A stretch of 64,000 nucleotides of DNA from assembly GCF_003334385.1 (NCBI RefSeq), contig NZ_QOWN01000024.1. One strand, given 5' to 3'. The first letter of the stretch is position 1. Each line of letters starts with the position of its first letter. This DNA is from Escherichia coli. Lineage in GTDB: Bacteria > Pseudomonadota > Gammaproteobacteria > Enterobacterales > Enterobacteriaceae. Below, one piece after another: positions 3,341 to 33,732 of this stretch. The notes under the pieces are model-generated. The model did not search any database. It was not told the origin of the DNA and saw only the letters and a list, made by a program, of their open reading frames with translations. Both the position numbers and the translations under genes were made by a program.

Positions 3341-3369
3341 AGCCCGTGAATATTCACGGGCTTTTTTTA
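3341..3369 (+). terminator. rho-independent terminator after dsbA
   Basis: Hairpin agcccgtgaatattcacgggct followed by ttttttt. Confidence 0.75.
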
Positions 3370-20439: not shown

Positions 20440-21420
20440 ATGATGACAATAAATAACGCAAGAAAGATTCTACAACGTGTCGACACTCTTCCTCTTTATT
20501 TACATGCTTATGCCTTTCATTTAAATATGCGGCTGGAAAGAGTGTTGCCTGCTGATTTACTTGATATCGCAAGTGAAAATAATCTACGTGGCGTCAAAAT
20601 CCATGTTCTGGATGGCGAGCGTTTTTCTCTTGGTAATATGGACGATAAAGAACTCTCTGCCTTTGGAGATAAAGCCCGCCGTCTGAACCTTGATATTCAT
20701 ATTGAAACCAGCGCCTCAGATAAGGCATCTATTGACGAAGCCGTCGCCATCGCGTTGAAAACTGGGGCATCGTCCGTACGTTTTTATCCACGTTATGAAG
20801 GTAATTTGCGCGACGTATTATCGATTATCGCTAACGACATTGCCTATGTACGGGAAACGTATCAGGACTGCGGCCTGACTTTTACGATTGAGCAGCATGA
20901 AGATTTAAAAAGTCATGAGCTGGTGTCGCTGGTCAAAGAAAGTGAGATGGAGTCTCTTTCCTTACTGTTTGATTTTGCGAACATGATCAATGCAAATGAG
21001 CATCCCATCGACGCCTTAAAAACGATGGCACCGCATATTACCCAGGTCCATATTAAAGATGCCTTGATCGTTAAAGAACAGGGTGGCCTGGGTCATAAAG
21101 CCTGTATTTCAGGTCAGGGTGATATGCCGTTCAAAGCGTTATTAACGCACCTTATCTGCCTTGGTGATGATGAGCCGCAGGTGACGGCATATGGCCTGGA
21201 AGAAGAGGTTGATTACTATGCGCCGGCGTTCCGCTTTGAAGACGAAGATGATAATCCGTGGATCCCTTATCGCCAGATGAGTGAAACACCCCTACCAGAA
21301 AATCATTTACTGGATGCGCGGTTACGTAAAGAAAAAGAAGATGCAATTAATCAGATAAATCATGTGCGTAACGTACTACAACAAATCAAACAAGAGGCAA
21401 ACCATCTTCTGAACCACTAA
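20440..21420 (+). CDS. yihM: sugar phosphate isomerase/epimerase-like TIM-barrel protein YihM
   Basis: 326 aa ORF immediately downstream of yihL. Confidence 0.75.
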   Translation: MMTINNARKILQRVDTLPLYLHAYAFHLNMRLERVLPADLLDIASENNLRGVKIHVLDGERFSLGNMDDKELSAFGDKARRLNLDIHIETSASDKASIDEAVAIALKTGASSVRFYPRYEGNLRDVLSIIANDIAYVRETYQDCGLTFTIEQHEDLKSHELVSLVKESEMESLSLLFDFANMINANEHPIDALKTMAPHITQVHIKDALIVKEQGGLGHKACISGQGDMPFKALLTHLICLGDDEPQVTAYGLEEEVDYYAPAFRFEDEDDNPWIPYRQMSETPLPENHLLDARLRKEKEDAINQINHVRNVLQQIKQEANHLLNH

Positions 21421-25079: not shown

Positions 25080-26465
25080 TTACGCCGTGCGTTTACGGGC
25101 TTCTATTTCTTCAACAATGCGGACATACATCTTCTCGTTCAGGCTGTAGAAGCAGCCCATCGCTACAATGGTGACTACCGCCAGTGCGCTTGGGTAGATG
25201 AAGATCAGCTGGCGCAACCCTTCAATGGTGTGGTCAGCCTGTGCGACGTTCGGCACATAGCCAATTTGCGTCAGCATCCAGCCGGGGAAGAAACCTGCCA
25301 GCGCCTGAGAAACTTTGCGAAAGAAGGTGAAGCCGGTGTAGACCGTCCCTTCAGAACGGACACCGGTGCGCCACTCGCCGTACTCGACGGTGTCAGAAAC
25401 CAGCGCCCAGTTCAGGCTGTTAACAAACGCCGAACCAAAGAACGCCAGGCAGGAGAAAGCCACAAAGTTGACCGAGCCGCCGCCGAAGAAATAGTTGAGC
25501 AGATCGCCCAGCACCCAGATCAGCAGACCGCCAATATAGACCTTCTTCTTACCAAAACGCCTGACTGCACCAGGCATCAGGAACACGCCGATGAAAATAC
25601 AGCCCATGCTGAAAAATCCCATATATGACAACAGGATGGGATCGTTAAGCACGTACTGGGTGTAATAGACCTGAATGGCGAGCTTGACGTTAAACGCCCC
25701 TAAGGTACAGAGGTTGGCAATGCACAAAATGAACAGTGGGCGGTTACCGGCAATTGCGCGGAAAGATTGCAACAGGCCTGGCTTTTGCGCCGGATTGGTA
25801 GGTTGGGTTTCGACATAACGCTCTTTCACGCCCGAATAGCAGATCCACATAAACAGCAGGCCAAACAGTGAAAACAGCGTGGCGGCGAAGATATAGCCAA
25901 GTTGCTGATTACCCTCGATAAGATTCATAACCGGCACGAATCCCACCGTGCACAGCAGCAGGCCCAGCGTAGCGCTGCCCTGACGCCATGCTGCCAGCGA
26001 GGCGCGTTCGTTGGGGTTTTTGGTAATGGCGGGAACCATTGCGCCGTAGGAGCAGTTCATCATGCTGAAAAACAGTCCGTAAAGCATAAACAGAATAGTG
26101 GCCATCACCGTTTTACCGGTGACATCGAACGGTGTGCCGATAAAGTTAGCGATTGCCAATAAGGTAACCGGGAATGACGCATACAGAATAAAAGGACGGA
26201 ATTTACCTTTTGGACCGATCTTGCGTCGGGAATCCAACATGATGCCGGTTCCCATATCGGTAAAGGCGGTAAAGAATTTCGAGATCAAAAAGATAATGCC
26301 GCCATAGGTGCCAGGCAGCCCCAGAACGTCGGTATAAAACTTCAAAAGATAAAGCGTACCAATATCCAGCAGGATGTTAGAGGCCAGATCGCCGATACCG
26401 TAAGAGAGTTTCTCTTTAAAGGGCAGGCGCAAAGTTGCCGGATCTTCCGTTGTGATGTGACTCAT
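25080..26465 (-). CDS. yihP: GPH-family transporter YihP
   Basis: 461 aa from Met MSHITTED; clearly similar to YihO along its length (e.g. shared LYLLKFYTD, LCIANLCTL motifs). Confidence 0.88.
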   Translation of the reverse strand: MSHITTEDPATLRLPFKEKLSYGIGDLASNILLDIGTLYLLKFYTDVLGLPGTYGGIIFLISKFFTAFTDMGTGIMLDSRRKIGPKGKFRPFILYASFPVTLLAIANFIGTPFDVTGKTVMATILFMLYGLFFSMMNCSYGAMVPAITKNPNERASLAAWRQGSATLGLLLCTVGFVPVMNLIEGNQQLGYIFAATLFSLFGLLFMWICYSGVKERYVETQPTNPAQKPGLLQSFRAIAGNRPLFILCIANLCTLGAFNVKLAIQVYYTQYVLNDPILLSYMGFFSMGCIFIGVFLMPGAVRRFGKKKVYIGGLLIWVLGDLLNYFFGGGSVNFVAFSCLAFFGSAFVNSLNWALVSDTVEYGEWRTGVRSEGTVYTGFTFFRKVSQALAGFFPGWMLTQIGYVPNVAQADHTIEGLRQLIFIYPSALAVVTIVAMGCFYSLNEKMYVRIVEEIEARKRTA

Positions 26466-26510
26466 CGTTATTCTCCATTTGCCCGTGAGTTTCCCCACGG
26501 GCGGGCATGA

Positions 26511-28547
26511 TTAGATGTTTTTTAACGAGGCGAACAGTGCAGCCCATTCGCTGTCGGCGCGATAAAAGACCGGCGGCTTGCCGATGGGCGCTTCAACAGT
26601 TATTTCTCCACCGTGGAAGGTTTCTCCGGTCCAGGCGTGGACCCAGTTATCCTCTGGCAGATAGAGCGTCCAGTCGCTGCGACCTTCTTCGTGTACCGGA
26701 GCAACCAGAATGTCGCGACCTAACAGGTACTGATATTTCAGGGAATAGGTCTGCGCGTCGTCTTCGTAATGCAGGAACAGCGGGCGCATAACCGGCAGGC
26801 CGGACTTCGCATTCAGCGCGACGGCCTCTTTCAGGTAAGGTTTCAGGGTGGTGAAGACGGTGGTCATACGGGCGAAATGGGCGATGGTTTCCGCGTCGCC
26901 GTCAAACTGCCAGTTGTCGCCAGGACGGTTACCTTCGTGGGTGCGCATCATCGGCGTGAAGGCGCTGAAATCGCACCAGCGCAGCAGCAGCTCTTTGCTG
27001 CGCTTCATCTCAAACAGGGTGGTATAACCGCCAATGTCGCTGTGATGCAGGCCATGTCCGGTCATTGCCAGAGATAGCGCCGCCGGGACAACCGACGCCA
27101 GGCCATCGTCCAGACTCCAGTCCACGTTCTGGTCACCCGCCCACATCATGGTGGAGTATTTCTGGCTACCGGTAGAACCGGCGCGCATAAAGAAGAGGAT
27201 CTCGCCGAGCTTGCCCGTTTCTTCAAGGGCTTCGTAGTTACATTTCGCCCACAGCGCGGGCCAGGCGTTATGCATAATTTCCGCGCTGATGCCGTTATGC
27301 AGGTACGTGTCGGTGGGCAGATACTCGCCGAAGTCAGCCATCCAGCCGCCGCAGCCGAGTTCAATCATGTTCTTTTTGATAACTTCCTTGAACCAGGCGT
27401 AGGCTTCCGGATTGGTGAGATCGACAACGCCGCCGTAGAACTCGCCAAACTCCACCAGATAGTCGCCACCGGCGACATCTTTTGCCAGATAACCGCGCTT
27501 TGCCGCCTCTTCGCAGAGATCTTTATCACTGGCAACATACGGGTTGATATAGGCAAGGAACTGCACGCCCTCTTTGTTCCACTGCTTGATACGCGAATCC
27601 AGTTGCGGGTAGTTTTCGCTGTTCCACTTCCAGTTCCACATCACGCGTTTGCCAAAAGAGGTCATACGAATACCGGACCAGTCCTGCGCCCAGATGCCGT
27701 TGACCTTCACGCCCGCGTTACGCATGGTGTCCAGTTTCTTCTGGCACACTTCCGTCCCGCCCTGAATGCCGAGCGTTACTCCGTCATAAATCCAGTCGGG
27801 CAGTTCTGGCTGGCGTCCCAGCAGGGCGGTTAATTTTTCCAGCAGGGAGATGTATGTGTCAGCACATTCAAAACGCAGCGTTGCTTTGTCTTCCCACAGC
27901 GCCAGTTCATGGTATTCCGGGGCACTAAAGTCGAAGTTCATATAGCAACTGTTATCAACATGGCAGTAATACTTCTGCGTGCTGACAAACGTAGGCTGTG
28001 GGAAGAAAGTCCAGTAATAGTCGCCGCCCGCATTTTCTTTGCAGTCGGCCTGCCAGGTGACATAGGTTTGTTTATTGCGACCAACGCCTTGTTCACTGGT
28101 CCATAGCGGGAACGGTTTGCCACGCAGATCGAAGTAGGAAAACTGTTCGCCGCAGCCGTAGATATGGTCCTCTGGTTGAGCGGCAAGGCGCAGCCAGATA
28201 CGGTTGTGGTTAAGGTTGTCGTTTTGTAGTTCCAGCAATAAACGGCCCTGATCGTCGGCAGAGATATTCAGCGTGGCGCTAATGTCAGAACCACGGCTGA
28301 AATGGATTAACCAACCATCCGGCGACTGGCTGACGATGGCGTCGGTAAGCGCAATTTTCTCCTGTAGTTTATCTTTAATGCTGAAATTGCCGCGGAACAT
28401 ATCGATATCCGCAATACCTGAACCAATCCATAAACAAGGATTATCTTTGCTATGGGTTAAAATAAGACGCTGTTGAAAATGTAGGGTAAAACTGTCGTTA
28501 TTCTGATGAAACTGAAAATCTGGTAATTGTGGGCGTGGCGTATCCAT
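26511..28547 (-). CDS. yihQ: sulfoquinovosidase YihQ (glycoside hydrolase family 31)
   Basis: 678 aa; GH31 catalytic region (WMADFGEYLP). Confidence 0.92.
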   Translation of the reverse strand: MDTPRPQLPDFQFHQNNDSFTLHFQQRLILTHSKDNPCLWIGSGIADIDMFRGNFSIKDKLQEKIALTDAIVSQSPDGWLIHFSRGSDISATLNISADDQGRLLLELQNDNLNHNRIWLRLAAQPEDHIYGCGEQFSYFDLRGKPFPLWTSEQGVGRNKQTYVTWQADCKENAGGDYYWTFFPQPTFVSTQKYYCHVDNSCYMNFDFSAPEYHELALWEDKATLRFECADTYISLLEKLTALLGRQPELPDWIYDGVTLGIQGGTEVCQKKLDTMRNAGVKVNGIWAQDWSGIRMTSFGKRVMWNWKWNSENYPQLDSRIKQWNKEGVQFLAYINPYVASDKDLCEEAAKRGYLAKDVAGGDYLVEFGEFYGGVVDLTNPEAYAWFKEVIKKNMIELGCGGWMADFGEYLPTDTYLHNGISAEIMHNAWPALWAKCNYEALEETGKLGEILFFMRAGSTGSQKYSTMMWAGDQNVDWSLDDGLASVVPAALSLAMTGHGLHHSDIGGYTTLFEMKRSKELLLRWCDFSAFTPMMRTHEGNRPGDNWQFDGDAETIAHFARMTTVFTTLKPYLKEAVALNAKSGLPVMRPLFLHYEDDAQTYSLKYQYLLGRDILVAPVHEEGRSDWTLYLPEDNWVHAWTGETFHGGEITVEAPIGKPPVFYRADSEWAALFASLKNI

Positions 28548-28655
28548 AAATAATCTCCATAGAGTATAAAGCTAATATTTCATGCCATCCTGTTGTTACA
28601 GGTTTCATTAATTAAAGAATGTGGTGCTGGTATAAATTAAAACCCGCATAAGTGA

Positions 28656-29531
28656 TTATTTACTTTCTTCAGCCCGGCGGATTGCCGCCACTTTTTTACC
28701 AAATGCCAGTTGCAGTATAACTAACAAGGTAAAAGGAGGCAGAAGCGCGGCAGCAGCGGGAATTCCCAGCGCGCCTTTTATCAACATAGAACCGGAGGCA
28801 ATCAGCAACAAAAAGACCATCACACGGAACACTTTGACTGAAATGCGTTTATGCACATATTGTCCAACCAGTGAACCGAGGATCATGGTGGGAATACAAA
28901 ACAGCACCAGTTTAAAGATAGAAACAGTCAAAATTCCGCTGGTCGCCAGCCCGCCGATCACCGCGATGTTGTTTGCGGTGAAGAAAGCGTTCAGAGTGCC
29001 ACGAAATGCCGCCGGGCCTAAGTTACGCAGCATACCGTAGATAACCATCGGCGGTCCGTTGGTTGAAAACGCTGCCCCTAACGCTCCTGCCACAGCGCCG
29101 ATAGGTGCGGCGATCCAGTTGCGGTCATAAATCGGCAGGCGTGGAATAAACATACTGTAAAAGGAGTACAGGATAAGGAATCCGCCTAAGCCCACTTTCA
29201 TAAAATGGTCGGGTAAATATGACAGCGCATATAAACCGACGGGTATTCCCAGAAACGAGAAAATAATCAGTACCATTGCCGATCGCCAATCCGTTTCTTT
29301 ACGTGACAGCCAGGTGGCGTACAAGGCGGTCGCGGTGCCGACAATCACCGAGAGCGGAGTTGCCATTTTTACGGGGAGCATTAACGTGACGAGCGGCATG
29401 GTGGTTAAACCACCGCCAAATCCCGCGCATATCCCCACAAAGGTATAAAGAAACATTAACGCGATAACGATACATACCACGTTTGTTTCCAGCATGACCC
29501 CATCCGGTGAAAATAACGTAAAAAAGTCCAT
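28656..29531 (-). CDS. TauE/SafE-family (DUF81) inner membrane protein, putative sulfonate/anion exporter
   Basis: 291 aa ORF with about 8 hydrophobic helices and the family-typical glycine motif GFGGGL near the N-terminus and a second G-rich helix in the C-terminal half; RBS aggaaat 7 nt upstream; same strand and tight spacing with yihR (60 bp) and yihQ (108 bp). Not a gene I recognise at this position in K-12. Confidence 0.7.
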   Translation of the reverse strand: MDFFTLFSPDGVMLETNVVCIVIALMFLYTFVGICAGFGGGLTTMPLVTLMLPVKMATPLSVIVGTATALYATWLSRKETDWRSAMVLIIFSFLGIPVGLYALSYLPDHFMKVGLGGFLILYSFYSMFIPRLPIYDRNWIAAPIGAVAGALGAAFSTNGPPMVIYGMLRNLGPAAFRGTLNAFFTANNIAVIGGLATSGILTVSIFKLVLFCIPTMILGSLVGQYVHKRISVKVFRVMVFLLLIASGSMLIKGALGIPAAAALLPPFTLLVILQLAFGKKVAAIRRAEESK

Positions 29532-29591
29532 GATATTTCCTGTTGTGTAAATACAACCCTAAACAATGATCTCGTTCTTTTCTTAATAAAA

Positions 29592-30494
29592 TTAATTGTG
29601 CTGCCCGTAAATATTAAAAAACAGGCGGTGCGTTTTCCCTGGTTCCAGTAATAATAAGTCGAGACCTGAATTAAAGGCGTTAGGTGGGCAACTCATAGGT
29701 TCAACTGCCAGTCCCTGACGCTGTAATTTTTCGCCGCTATAAATCTGCACCCAGGGTTGATCGGAACAAAGGCTTACCGAAAGCGCCTGTTGTGGATGGG
29801 TAATGGTTATTTCCCACAGATCATTAGCGGTTTTAAAGGTGTGGTCGATTTTTGTCGCGGCTATTTTTTTCGCCTGCGTGAAATTTAAATCCAGCTCATC
29901 AACGTGGTGAAGCGTTGTCGGATTAGCGTGCTCATCGACGGCATAAACCTGGTTTGCCGGAAGCTGGAACAGATATTCATCAACAGATGTTAAGTTGCAG
30001 GTTAAATAAGGATGAATACCCACACCATAGGGTGCGGTCACAGTACCAATATTCTGACTTGCGATCTCAACGGAAAGACCCGTGCGTGCATTGAGCGAAT
30101 AAACAACCTGCGAAGCCAGCATAAACGGATAGCCGTAACTGGGTGGCAGAAAAGCTGTCAGGGTAACGCTGGTGGCGGTTAATTCGCTGATTTGCCAGTC
30201 ACGCCAGGCGAGCAGCCCATGAATAGCGGCTTTTGAACCATGTTCATTAATGGGTAACTGATATTCCTGCCCCTGATAGCGATAACAGCCGTTGGCGATC
30301 CGGTTCGGCCACGGAATAAGGACTTTGCCCAGATGTGCCAGCGGCATCTCTTCGGGTTTATGTGGAATAACTAAATGACAGCCCTGAAAGGTTAATTCAG
30401 CCAGACCTGCACCGACGGTCACAATGGTCGCGTGATAATCCCCCGCGGCAAGTGAAACGGTCTGTCCACTGCAATGCATGTTGGTGATTTGCAT
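29592..30494 (-). CDS. yihR: aldose-1-epimerase-like mutarotase YihR
   Basis: 300 aa ORF; no in-frame upstream start before a stop 21 codons upstream. Confidence 0.85.
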   Translation of the reverse strand: MQITNMHCSGQTVSLAAGDYHATIVTVGAGLAELTFQGCHLVIPHKPEEMPLAHLGKVLIPWPNRIANGCYRYQGQEYQLPINEHGSKAAIHGLLAWRDWQISELTATSVTLTAFLPPSYGYPFMLASQVVYSLNARTGLSVEIASQNIGTVTAPYGVGIHPYLTCNLTSVDEYLFQLPANQVYAVDEHANPTTLHHVDELDLNFTQAKKIAATKIDHTFKTANDLWEITITHPQQALSVSLCSDQPWVQIYSGEKLQRQGLAVEPMSCPPNAFNSGLDLLLLEPGKTHRLFFNIYGQHN

Positions 30495-30562
30495 ACGAGG
30501 TACCTTTATTGAATAACGACATACCCGGCGTGCAGCCTGATATGTCGTTTTTTTTTAGTCAG

Positions 30563-31804
30563 CTATTTCGCGTTAATATCCAGCAGACCCGCCGCAACTG
30601 CCGGAGCCAGGCCTGGCGCTAACGGGATACGCGGGATCACCAGGCAATGCAGCAGGTGATAAATATCCTGTTTACCGTCCCAGACTTTCGTGGTGACTTT
30701 ATTGTCCGCATCCAGCTCCTGCCACCAGGAACCATTTTCATAGTCCATCAGGTACTTAATGCAGTAGTCCCACCATGTCTGATACCAGGTTTCATACTGG
30801 CGATCGCCGGTGACGGTGTAGAGCGCGTAGGCCGTACCCATCGCTTCGACGATAGGCCAACGCACACGTTCGCGGACCACCGGTTTTCCTTCCCAGTCAA
30901 CGGTATAAACAATCCCGTCCGCACCATCGGGTGCCCAGGCATCACGCACGGTGGCGTTAAACAGACCTTTGGCATCTTCTAGCAGCCATGCTGGCGGTTG
31001 TTCGCAACGGGCTTCCAGGGCCGCGTGGATGTGCAGCATTAAACGGCCCCATTCGATCCAGTGGCCTGGTGTACCTCCGAACGCGCGGAAGCGGTGCGCC
31101 GGGTTATCTTTGTTGTAATCCGGCAGCGGATTCCACTGGGTATCGAAGTGTTCGTTAACGCGATAATGATTATTTCTTGCGACGTCGTGGATAATCACGG
31201 AAGCCACGCGAATCGCGCGATCCAGCCATTTTTTGTCATGCGTTACGTCATAAACAATTAAGAAAGCTTCCACTGCGTGCATATTGGCATTGCCGCCGCG
31301 GTACTCTTCGGTTTTGCTGAAGGCTTCGTCCCAGGACTCCAGGCACATCTGCTCTTCTTCGCTCCAGAAGTATTTCTCGATAATTTCAATGGTGTAATCG
31401 AGCAGCTTGCGCGCTTCCGGATGACCGGTAGTGACGGCGCTGGCAGCACCCAGCAGAGCAAAGAAATGTTGATAGCCCTGTTTGGAGGCATCCACCACGC
31501 CCTCGTCATTCACACAGGCATACCAGCCGCCATATTTTTTATCGCGCAGTGCGCCGTTCATGGCTTTAATACCGTGATCAACCAACGAGTAAGCGCCAGG
31601 TCGACCCATCGCCGCAGCAACGGAATAAACGTGCAACATCCGAGCTGTGATCCACAGATGGGTGCCCATCTCTTCTTTGATTTGCCCTTTATTGCCTAAC
31701 CAGCCAAATCCAGTCGGTACTACGGAATTTTTACCAAAATCAAAGATGCGATCGGTTTCCTGTTCCAGCCAACGGTTGTGACTTAAAGTGTTAAACCATT
31801 TCAT
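30563..31804 (-). CDS. yihS: sulfoquinovose isomerase YihS
   Basis: 413 aa. Confidence 0.9.
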
Positions 31805-31819
31805 TTTTGTATCCCCATC

Positions 31820-32698
31820 TTAACGGCGTTTAGCCATCATTTCGTCGACGATATCGCCCAGTTGTTGTAATTTCGGTGCACAAACGTCACGCAGCATCAG
31901 CTCGTTGTCTGGTAAACCGACGACCGATGCCCAGACGGCACGACCAGCCAGGAAGCCCGATGCACCCGCTGTCATTGCCACGCGTACGGCACGCGGGAAC
32001 AGTTTTTCGTCGACACCGGAAGAGAGGATCACCCACGGCATATTGATATGGTCATTCAGACGTTGTGAAGCACTGAGAAGCTCTTGTTGCGGACCTTTAC
32101 CGTAAAGCGGCATTTCAACTTTGTAGAGGTCAGCGCCACTGTCGCCCAGCTCTTTGGCAGCATCGATGATCGCTTGTTCGCGATCGAATTTATCGCCACG
32201 ACGTGGTGGGCGGACGACTGGCTCAATAATGCTTACCAGGCCGTGTGAGTGGCACAGTTCGTTAAACTCTTTCACCATATCCAGGCGTTGCTGCGCATCT
32301 TCATCACTACGCCACAGCACCAGCAGTTTTAAGGCTTTGCCACCGTCTTGTTTGATCTGTAGCGGATTGATTTTGCGGTCAATGACCACGCTATCTACCG
32401 GAATACCGTTGCCAGGAATGAACTCATCGGCGGCGACAATCATGGCGCAACTTTTGGCAATCGCGTTTTGCTCAACCACCTGGCGGTAACAGAATTGTTG
32501 ATCTACCAGAATCGCCGAGGCATAAGGCGAGAGGGTCTTCGCCGCGTTAACTTTGAAATCAGTTAAAACGCTATCGGCTACCGGAGCGGGTGCCCCAGCC
32601 GCGGCAAACATCATGCGCATGGCTTCGCGCTGATCGACCGCCAGCATGGCAAAACCGCCCGATGCGCGCGTAATGTCGTTGATGGTGTACTTATTCAT
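31820..32698 (-). CDS. yihT: 6-deoxy-6-sulfofructose-1-phosphate aldolase YihT
   Basis: 292 aa class I aldolase-like protein. Confidence 0.9.
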
Positions 32699-33618: not shown

Positions 33619-33641
33619 AACCTTCTCCTGAATACAGCGAT

Positions 33642-33732
33642 GTCACTTTTTGTCATTTATGACACGCTTTGATTGTCTGTTTTTGATCGTATTTGTAATT
33701 TATAGTCAAAAAATTGACAGCCGTCACTTTTT
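33642..33732. promoter_or_regulatory. yihU/yihV divergent promoter region with repeated GTCACTTTTT operator-like motifs (candidate CsqR sites)
   Basis: gtcactttttgtcatttatgacac (33642-33668) and gtcacttttt (33723-33732) in a 161 bp divergent intergenic region. Confidence 0.5.

Follow-up and report, generated by a model that had tools for sequence, protein, structure and literature searches.

A conserved stem-loop between yihS and yihR in the sulfoquinovose cluster of Escherichia coli, a candidate boundary element of the yih operon mRNA

The spacer between the minus-strand genes yihS and yihR of Escherichia coli contains a hairpin that is followed, on the opposite strand, by a long run of T, raising the question of whether it serves to end antisense transcription or belongs to the mRNA of the operon itself. 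We analysed the element within a 64,000-nt stretch of E. coli DNA (the window), whose interval 30200-30900 is found with 100 % identity in strain 203740 and is matched in 4004 of 5426 complete E. coli genomes. The ORF list and the RefSeq annotation of the identical strain 203740 identify yihS (30563..31804, minus strand) as the sulfoquinovose isomerase gene, encoding 413 amino acids, and the ORF list and annotation identify yihR (29592..30494, minus strand) as encoding a sulfoquinovose mutarotase/aldose-1-epimerase of 300 amino acids; from the sequence and ORF list the two are separated by an intercistronic spacer of 68 nt (30495..30562). The yihS stop codon, read from the sequence, is TAG (30563-30565, minus strand) in the window and in strain 203740, and TAA in K-12, O157, CLSC36 and most orthologues. 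Downstream of yihR lies a TauE/SafE-family gene of 291 amino acids (28656..29531, minus strand; Pfam PF01925, E 4.7e-35), placed between yihR and yihQ where K-12 has a 198-nt gap only. Of 5426 complete E. coli genomes ~1288 have it, as do the hairpin-bearing cassettes of Citrobacter, Salmonella and metagenomes, and it belongs to the cassette type with the hairpin, the gene order being the same in related loci; a 2025 survey of yih cassettes distinguishes a long and a short form only (PMC12608037).

The core of the element is a 9-bp perfect inverted repeat, in which AACGACATA at 30515-30523 is answered without mismatch by its reverse complement TATGTCGTT at 30541-30549; the window contains no other copy of that 9-mer. 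On the plus strand the end of the right arm shares two bases with a run of nine T (30548-30556). An earlier note had described a hairpin followed by a T-run on the plus strand of this 68-nt spacer, as the sequence confirms, although the interval that it gave, 30505-30547, starts ~10 nt too early and stops short of the ends of the right arm and the T-run. In the sense (minus-strand) RNA the hairpin begins 13 nt past the yihS stop and lies ~20 nt ahead of the yihR start codon. There its 5′ arm is AACGACATA (30541..30549; the right arm on the plus strand), its 3′ arm is TATGTCGTT (30515..30523; the left arm on the plus strand), and the nine T of the plus strand are nine A (30548..30556). The stem has three G-C pairs and an AU-rich base, and encloses a variable apical region of 17 nt (30524..30540) that is partly paired and is unconserved in the orthologue alignment; in the predicted fold of the sense RNA, U·G and C-G pairs lengthen the stem and are followed by a GGC/GCC upper helix of 3 bp (30527-30529 / 30535-30537) and a 5-nt loop. 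The AU-rich tail 3′ of the hairpin, AUUCAAUA (30507..30514, minus strand), is single-stranded in the fold; it reads as a weak U-tract and might be cleaved by an RNase E-type enzyme. A putative yihR Shine-Dalgarno sequence, AAGG (30503..30506, minus strand), lies 8 nt before the ATG and is unpaired in the predicted fold, with an A/G-rich element also present at this place in orthologues.

Both strands are predicted to fold well beyond expectation. The plus-strand RNA reached -16.9 kcal/mol (z -4.7) and the sense-strand RNA -19.9 kcal/mol (z -7.2), with 0 of 200 shuffles as good in either case, the sense fold gaining U·G and C-G pairs whose plus-strand counterparts are A·C and a weaker arrangement. 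No structure was seen on folding the neighbouring yihR-tauE (z -1.15) and tauE-yihQ (z -0.34) spacers. A perfect inverted repeat of 9 nt is weak evidence by itself; the window has 29, where shuffled sequence gives 5.2 +/- 2.6. The scarcity of long T-runs and the retention of the stem in other genera lift this one above chance. Runs of at least seven T number only 17 across both strands of the 64 kb. A strong hairpin adjoins four others on the plus strand: those at 3362, 19547 and 57545 lie within ~80 nt past a plus-strand ORF of at least 200 amino acids, and the fourth is at 62418. By this signature the yihS-yihR site looks like true terminators, but the hairpins at the other sites are GC-rich and span 19-24 nt, whereas that between yihS and yihR is AU-rich and spans 35 nt. 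A generic terminator scan flagged here only a sub-optimal inner stem of seven pairs (30526-30547), and over a 2-kb region it found one terminator versus 2.1 expected from shuffles. An Rfam scan of 29000-32000 at E ≤ 10 returned nothing of relevance, and a literature search found no description of the hairpin. The hairpin is single-copy, being found at one place per genome in 1678 genomes, once per locus and as one pattern match in the window; a dispersed repeat (REP/BIME or other) is ruled out by this single occurrence per genome and per locus.

Orthologous junctions were collected from 79 yihS loci of species-representative genomes together with 12 contigs encoding YihR relatives (individual loci are cited below by L numbers). 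Across 18 orthologous spacers, drawn from six genera or more, the arms ACGGCAT(AT)/(AT)ATGCCGT hardly vary. The pattern ACGGCAT(AT)...(AT)ATGCCGT is found in every 55-86-nt spacer that separates yihS from an E. coli-type yihR (at least 68 % identity), and also in the spacer of Mangrovibacter plantisponsor, whose yihR is 59 % identical; the loci concerned come from E. albertii, E. whittamii, Citrobacter spp., Salmonella enterica including subsp. diarizonae, Superficieibacter, Mangrovibacter and metagenome contigs. The hairpin is absent from spacers of 0-27 nt that precede a distant yihR (54-63 %) and from loci with another next gene. In the orthologue alignment the arms are invariant or nearly so and the loops (7 to ~20 nt) and flanks are not alignable, while 87.9 % of stem cells are paired versus 24-44 % with a slid partner column. 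Changes on both sides were seen in only two of 11 stem pairs. Over the final 90 nt of yihS, third codon positions retain a mean identity to the window of ~54 %, which is close to saturation, and the near-invariance of the arms against this divergence points to strong purifying selection on them; to judge from the alignment, selection apparently acts on the arm sequence as well as on pairing.

Other arrangements of the junction were encountered in relatives. Salmonella enterica subsp. arizonae (L018) has a 3-nt yihS-yihR gap and a YihR 57 % identical, and subsp. diarizonae (L043) has a hairpin spacer and a YihR 71 % identical; such differing junctions, on sequence comparison, suggest that cassette types are exchanged horizontally. 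In Enterobacteriaceae bacterium 89 (L022 3743-3805) a REP-like palindrome, GCCGGATG...ATCCGGC, occupies the spacer in place of the conserved hairpin. A 2.9-kb contig labelled MAG Bacillota bacterium (L005; JAEWTL010000022.1) encodes a YihS 99.5-100 % identical to that of E. coli and has a K-12-type Box C spacer, and probably, from these identities, came from E. coli and was wrongly binned into the Bacillota MAG.

Within E. coli the yihS-yihR spacer exists as at least four alleles. The window-type allele with its T8 and T7 variants (ETEC6, O157:H7), found in 437 genomes at ≥99 % identity and in 683 at 95-99 %, has the T-run directly after the hairpin on the plus strand. The CLSC36-type allele (557 genomes) has the plus-strand tail TTATTTC and a stem pair that is G·U in sense and A·C on the plus strand. 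In the K-12-type allele (2248 genomes) a Box C element lies between the hairpin and a remnant T-tract, and the hairpin is remodelled in the same place as GACAU-CAGCCUC/GAGGCUG-AUGUC with a new GC-rich upper stem. A rare N96-like allele has Box C and, after the hairpin, UUUUUU on the sense strand; in E. coli N96 itself (L089 266-383) the Box C is shorter, and this is the only allele seen that resembles a canonical sense-strand terminator. Because all allele forms keep one, a hairpin is universal at this position in E. coli, the K-12 lineage being without the ACG of the 5′ arm and still retaining the hairpin. The E. coli stem has undergone a G-C to A-U double change, for which CLSC36-type strains and E. 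whittamii supply sense G·U intermediates. The T-run, as T7, T8 or T9, is present in 1120 genomes, directly following the hairpin in ~28 % of cassette-bearing E. coli genomes and being absent or separated from the stem in ~72 %. Its length at 30548-30556 is nine in the window, eight in ETEC6 (L084) and seven in O157:H7 and others (L004, L085, L086), and such polymorphism among close relatives is typical of slippage.

The Box C or HPGQ insertion of the K-12 spacer (L001 594-730; NC_000913.3 ~4070378-4070514) is absent from the window. Box C is the HPGQ element, and both the yihS-yihR and the pstA/pstB spacer appear among the HPGQ sites catalogued in PMC5100583. Genomic SELEX with minor-sigma holoenzymes of RNA polymerase gave peaks at yihR/yihS and at pstB/pstA (PMC5493296). 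Since both of these spacers carry Box C, the polymerase binding may reflect that element and need not apply to the window, and the 'constitutive promoters' reported at yihR/yihS and pstB/pstA may likewise reflect the repeat. Box C adjoins the hairpin in the same spacer of K-12-type strains, but it is a multi-copy G-rich repeat (median four places per genome with a query containing Box C), whereas the hairpin is single-copy and of different sequence.

The strand was examined through the kinds of change that the stem has accepted, through folding and through the tails. Read in sense, one-sided changes of the core stem are mostly G·U, with ~7 such events versus two that are A·C; the G·U or U·G cases are CLSC36 with E. 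whittamii, Mangrovibacter, L091, a terminal U·G in several sequences and C. farmeri, and the A·C cases are E. albertii and strain N96. Among 19 distinct sequences, 10 fold more stably in sense, and the mean difference is 1.5 kcal/mol (Wilcoxon p 0.15). Both the mismatch counts and the paired folding energies lean towards the sense strand without reaching significance. T-richness of the 15 nt after the stem does not separate the strands, with mean orthologue scores of 3.2 (sense) and 3.3 (antisense) that are mostly below those of clear terminators. The sole outliers are the window (5.86), O157 (5.18) and L099 (5.30) in antisense and N96 in sense; L094 and L043 score 3.59, and several orthologues have ATTTTT or TTTTTT on the antisense side. 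Sense scores are 3.09 for the window (UAUUCAAU), 4.87 for the UUUUUU of N96 and 4.08 for E. whittamii. C. sedlakii (L096) and locus L100 have no sense U-tract and have a ribosome-binding site directly after the stem, so that intrinsic termination cannot be its universal role.

Judged as a terminator of the plus strand, the window's element has a stable hairpin and nine T where at least ~5 U in 8 would be expected, but has no same-strand unit upstream and a U-tract that is not conserved with the hairpin. Such terminators would also have a compact, GC-rich stem and a loop of 3-8 nt; here a 9-bp stem with three G-C pairs surrounds a partly paired interior of 17 nt. The coding strand, as the earlier note had it, does not read as a canonical terminator: no U-rich tract follows the hairpin, UAUUCAAU having only four T in eight. 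A stabiliser or processing hairpin would be expected as a stable sense stem-loop 3′ of the upstream cistron that is conserved in relatives, and this is what is observed.

Evidence on transcription comes mainly from K-12. Shimada and colleagues (cited in PMC8006165; PMC8249747) describe yihUTS as one operon, and Kaznadzey 2018 reported independent expression of yihR and yihQ together with in vitro binding of RNA polymerase to the K-12 yihS/R spacer. Raw reads from K-12 grown on sulfoquinovose were 547/612 for yihS, 142/148 for yihR and 676/699 for yihQ, which with the gene lengths correspond to ~467, ~156 and ~338 reads per kb. This threefold drop in read density from yihS to yihR falls at a K-12 spacer that also carries Box C, and yihR is induced from 0; the drop together with the induction fits a leaky boundary. 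On the plus strand, Adams 2021 placed a Rho termination region antisense to yihS at 4070730 (Rho score 3.4, p 4e-7; PMC7815308 suppl. 2), where reads upstream/downstream were 61/43 without and 79/188 with bicyclomycin (PMC7815308). This position is ~215 nt past the spacer, inside K-12 yihS (4070515-4071756), so that weak antisense RNA does cross the K-12 junction, where no T-run follows the hairpin. A second such K-12 plus-strand region lies at 4063846, antisense to ompL (PMC7815308 suppl. 2), and the pair implies low-level antisense transcription through the silent yih cluster in LB. Between 4070200 and 4070799 the K-12 Term-seq tables list no curated 3′ end for either strand, the operon being repressed under those conditions, and the TERMITe supplements have no yih entry. 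In the window, a search of 26000-30600 for a plus-strand feeder of the hairpin found no ORF ending before it and no promoter-like site near it. The antisense RNA that crosses the K-12 junction, together with the hairpin-U9 signature, makes plus-strand termination in the window physically plausible, and to this extent the proposal in the earlier note that the element stops plus-strand (antisense) transcription holds up; as the purpose of the element it does not, given that the stem is conserved and the T-run is not.

The account that we favour, with a confidence evenly balanced between belief and doubt, is that of a conserved sense-strand stem-loop in the yih operon mRNA, acting at the yihUTS/yihR boundary as a leaky terminator and/or a 3′-end protector. 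We rank the sense strand first because the conserved object is the stem, which the sulfoquinovose-induced sense mRNA contains in quantity. The stem-loop would mark the border between the yihUTS segment and yihR(-tauE-yihQPO). RNA polymerase would terminate partially at it, and/or the AU-rich tail 3′ of the stem would be cleaved, after which the stem would shield the upstream yihUTS RNA from 3′ exonucleases; by either route yihS RNA would come to exceed yihR RNA. In the lineage of the window the A-rich stretch 5′ of the stem has grown to nine A, probably via slippage, and this expansion leaves on the opposite strand a hairpin followed by U9, with the look of an intrinsic terminator. The window allele can thus probably end stray antisense transcripts in the manner of an intrinsic terminator, as a by-product and not as the conserved role. 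This account is favoured by the presence in the same spacer of other structured elements, Box C in K-12 and the REP-like palindrome in L022. Against a plain structural element stands the conservation of the arm sequence itself beyond pairing, which such an element need not show.

We consider it unlikely that the hairpin was selected as an antisense or bidirectional intrinsic terminator, which would stop antisense transcription from yihR into yihS and whose A-tract and weak U-tract may work both ways. The U9 directly after a plus-strand hairpin of -16.9 kcal/mol, the location of other strong hairpins with T≥7 in the window just past plus-strand ORFs, the K-12 antisense RNA that crosses the junction and needs Rho to stop at 4070730, and the T-rich antisense side of several orthologues (L099 at 5.30; L094 and L043 at 3.59) all accord with it. 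Yet the T-run, missing or separated in ~72 % of cassette genomes, varies as T7/T8/T9 in the manner of slippage, the antisense tails of orthologues are no better than the sense ones (3.3 vs 3.2), and there is no plus-strand ORF or promoter-like site upstream. Moreover A·C mismatches destabilise the plus-strand fold, and a stem that is AU-rich at its base, 35 nt long and with a 17-nt interior differs from the compact plus-strand terminators of 19-24 nt elsewhere in the window. A neutral relic, a palindrome left over from the junction formed when the yihR-tauE module joined yihS and now functionless, is very improbable: the confinement of the hairpin to the cassette type with E. coli-type yihR would suit it, as would the ~5 chance occurrences expected among the window's 29 inverted repeats of 9 nt, but the stem has been kept in at least six genera while loops, flanks and synonymous sites diverged, pairing has been restored after change, and the yihR-tauE and tauE-yihQ spacers are without structure.

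Conservation of the arms far beyond that of neutral sites, with few compensatory changes, would also accord with a sequence-specific site read by a partner, whether in RNA for RNase III-type processing or a binding protein, or in DNA as an operator of a yihR-tauE promoter, any of which would set expression of the downstream genes. By analogy with RNase III substrates as generally understood, a total helix of ~13-16 bp with an internal loop could suit the first of these, and RNA polymerase does bind the K-12 yihS/R spacer in vitro; that binding may stem from Box C, however, as the Box C-bearing pstA/pstB spacer scores too. The distance between arms, 7 to ~20 nt, is at odds with a rigid dimeric operator, the K-12 lineage has lost the ACG of its 5′ arm and yet keeps the hairpin, a search of the window's yih regulatory spacers returned no comparable half-sites, and the yihU/yihV spacer is the one target of CsqR, so we regard such a site as improbable. 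Genomic SELEX of CsqR gave a single strong target at yihU/yihV (PMC8249747), and a CsqR (YihW) operator was rejected on finding no ACGGCATAT-like half-site in 33619-33779; three ACGGCATAT-like sites at 21030-21192 are inside an ORF and look like chance. We see only a slender chance that the arms ACGGCATAT/ATATGCCGT constitute an undescribed sequence-specific cis-regulatory RNA motif of yihS-yihR-tauE cassettes that was co-opted in some E. coli as a bidirectional terminator; such a motif could be a processing or protein-binding site setting the ratio of isomerase to mutarotase plus exporter.

The boundary stem-loop that we favour has counterparts in known systems. Intrinsic terminators, among them the bidirectional type in which an A-tract precedes and a U-tract follows the hairpin, are matched on the plus strand by a hairpin that runs straight into U9 and on the opposite strand by an A-run ahead of the stem, and the folding energy here is within the range of the window's other terminators; unlike them, the element lies between co-directional genes of one cluster and not at the end of a unit or a convergent junction, and has a long, AU-rich stem with a 17-nt interior and a U-tract that is not conserved. 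RNase III processing hairpins, of which phage T7 R1.1 and rpsO-pnp are examples, would be similar, going by general knowledge of such substrates, in being intercistronic, with ~1.5 helical turns and an internal loop or bulge, and by the same analogy the helix here would be at the short end for RNase III. Intercistronic stabiliser hairpins such as the malE-malF REP are also stable stem-loops 3′ of the upstream cistron that are followed by an AU-rich stretch. The excess of upstream over downstream gene RNA in K-12 is a further likeness, as is the Box C or REP-like element in the same spacer of other strains and species; unlike REP stabilisers the yihS-yihR hairpin is single-copy with unusually conserved arms, and its processing role is that of a candidate. 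Selective RNA processing and stabilisation has been developed as a genome-wide concept (PMC10667835), and it is within it, or as partial termination, that we infer the mechanism. The hairpin resembles an intrinsic terminator or a stabiliser hairpin and is of an ordinary kind, though not previously described in its own right.

Its modest significance lies in its place and in its variation. Within the sulfoquinovose catabolic cluster it marks the boundary at which the literature splits yihUTS from the downstream genes and names no signal. Its four alleles in E. coli (T-run; no T-run; Box C; Box C with a sense U6) form a natural experiment, and could reveal how flanking sequence decides whether a hairpin terminates transcription, in which direction, or merely stabilises RNA. 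For the scanning of genomes the lesson is that, where a hairpin and T-run face a gene from the opposite strand, this pattern can have arisen in one lineage as a by-product, the conserved feature being a hairpin of the sense strand.
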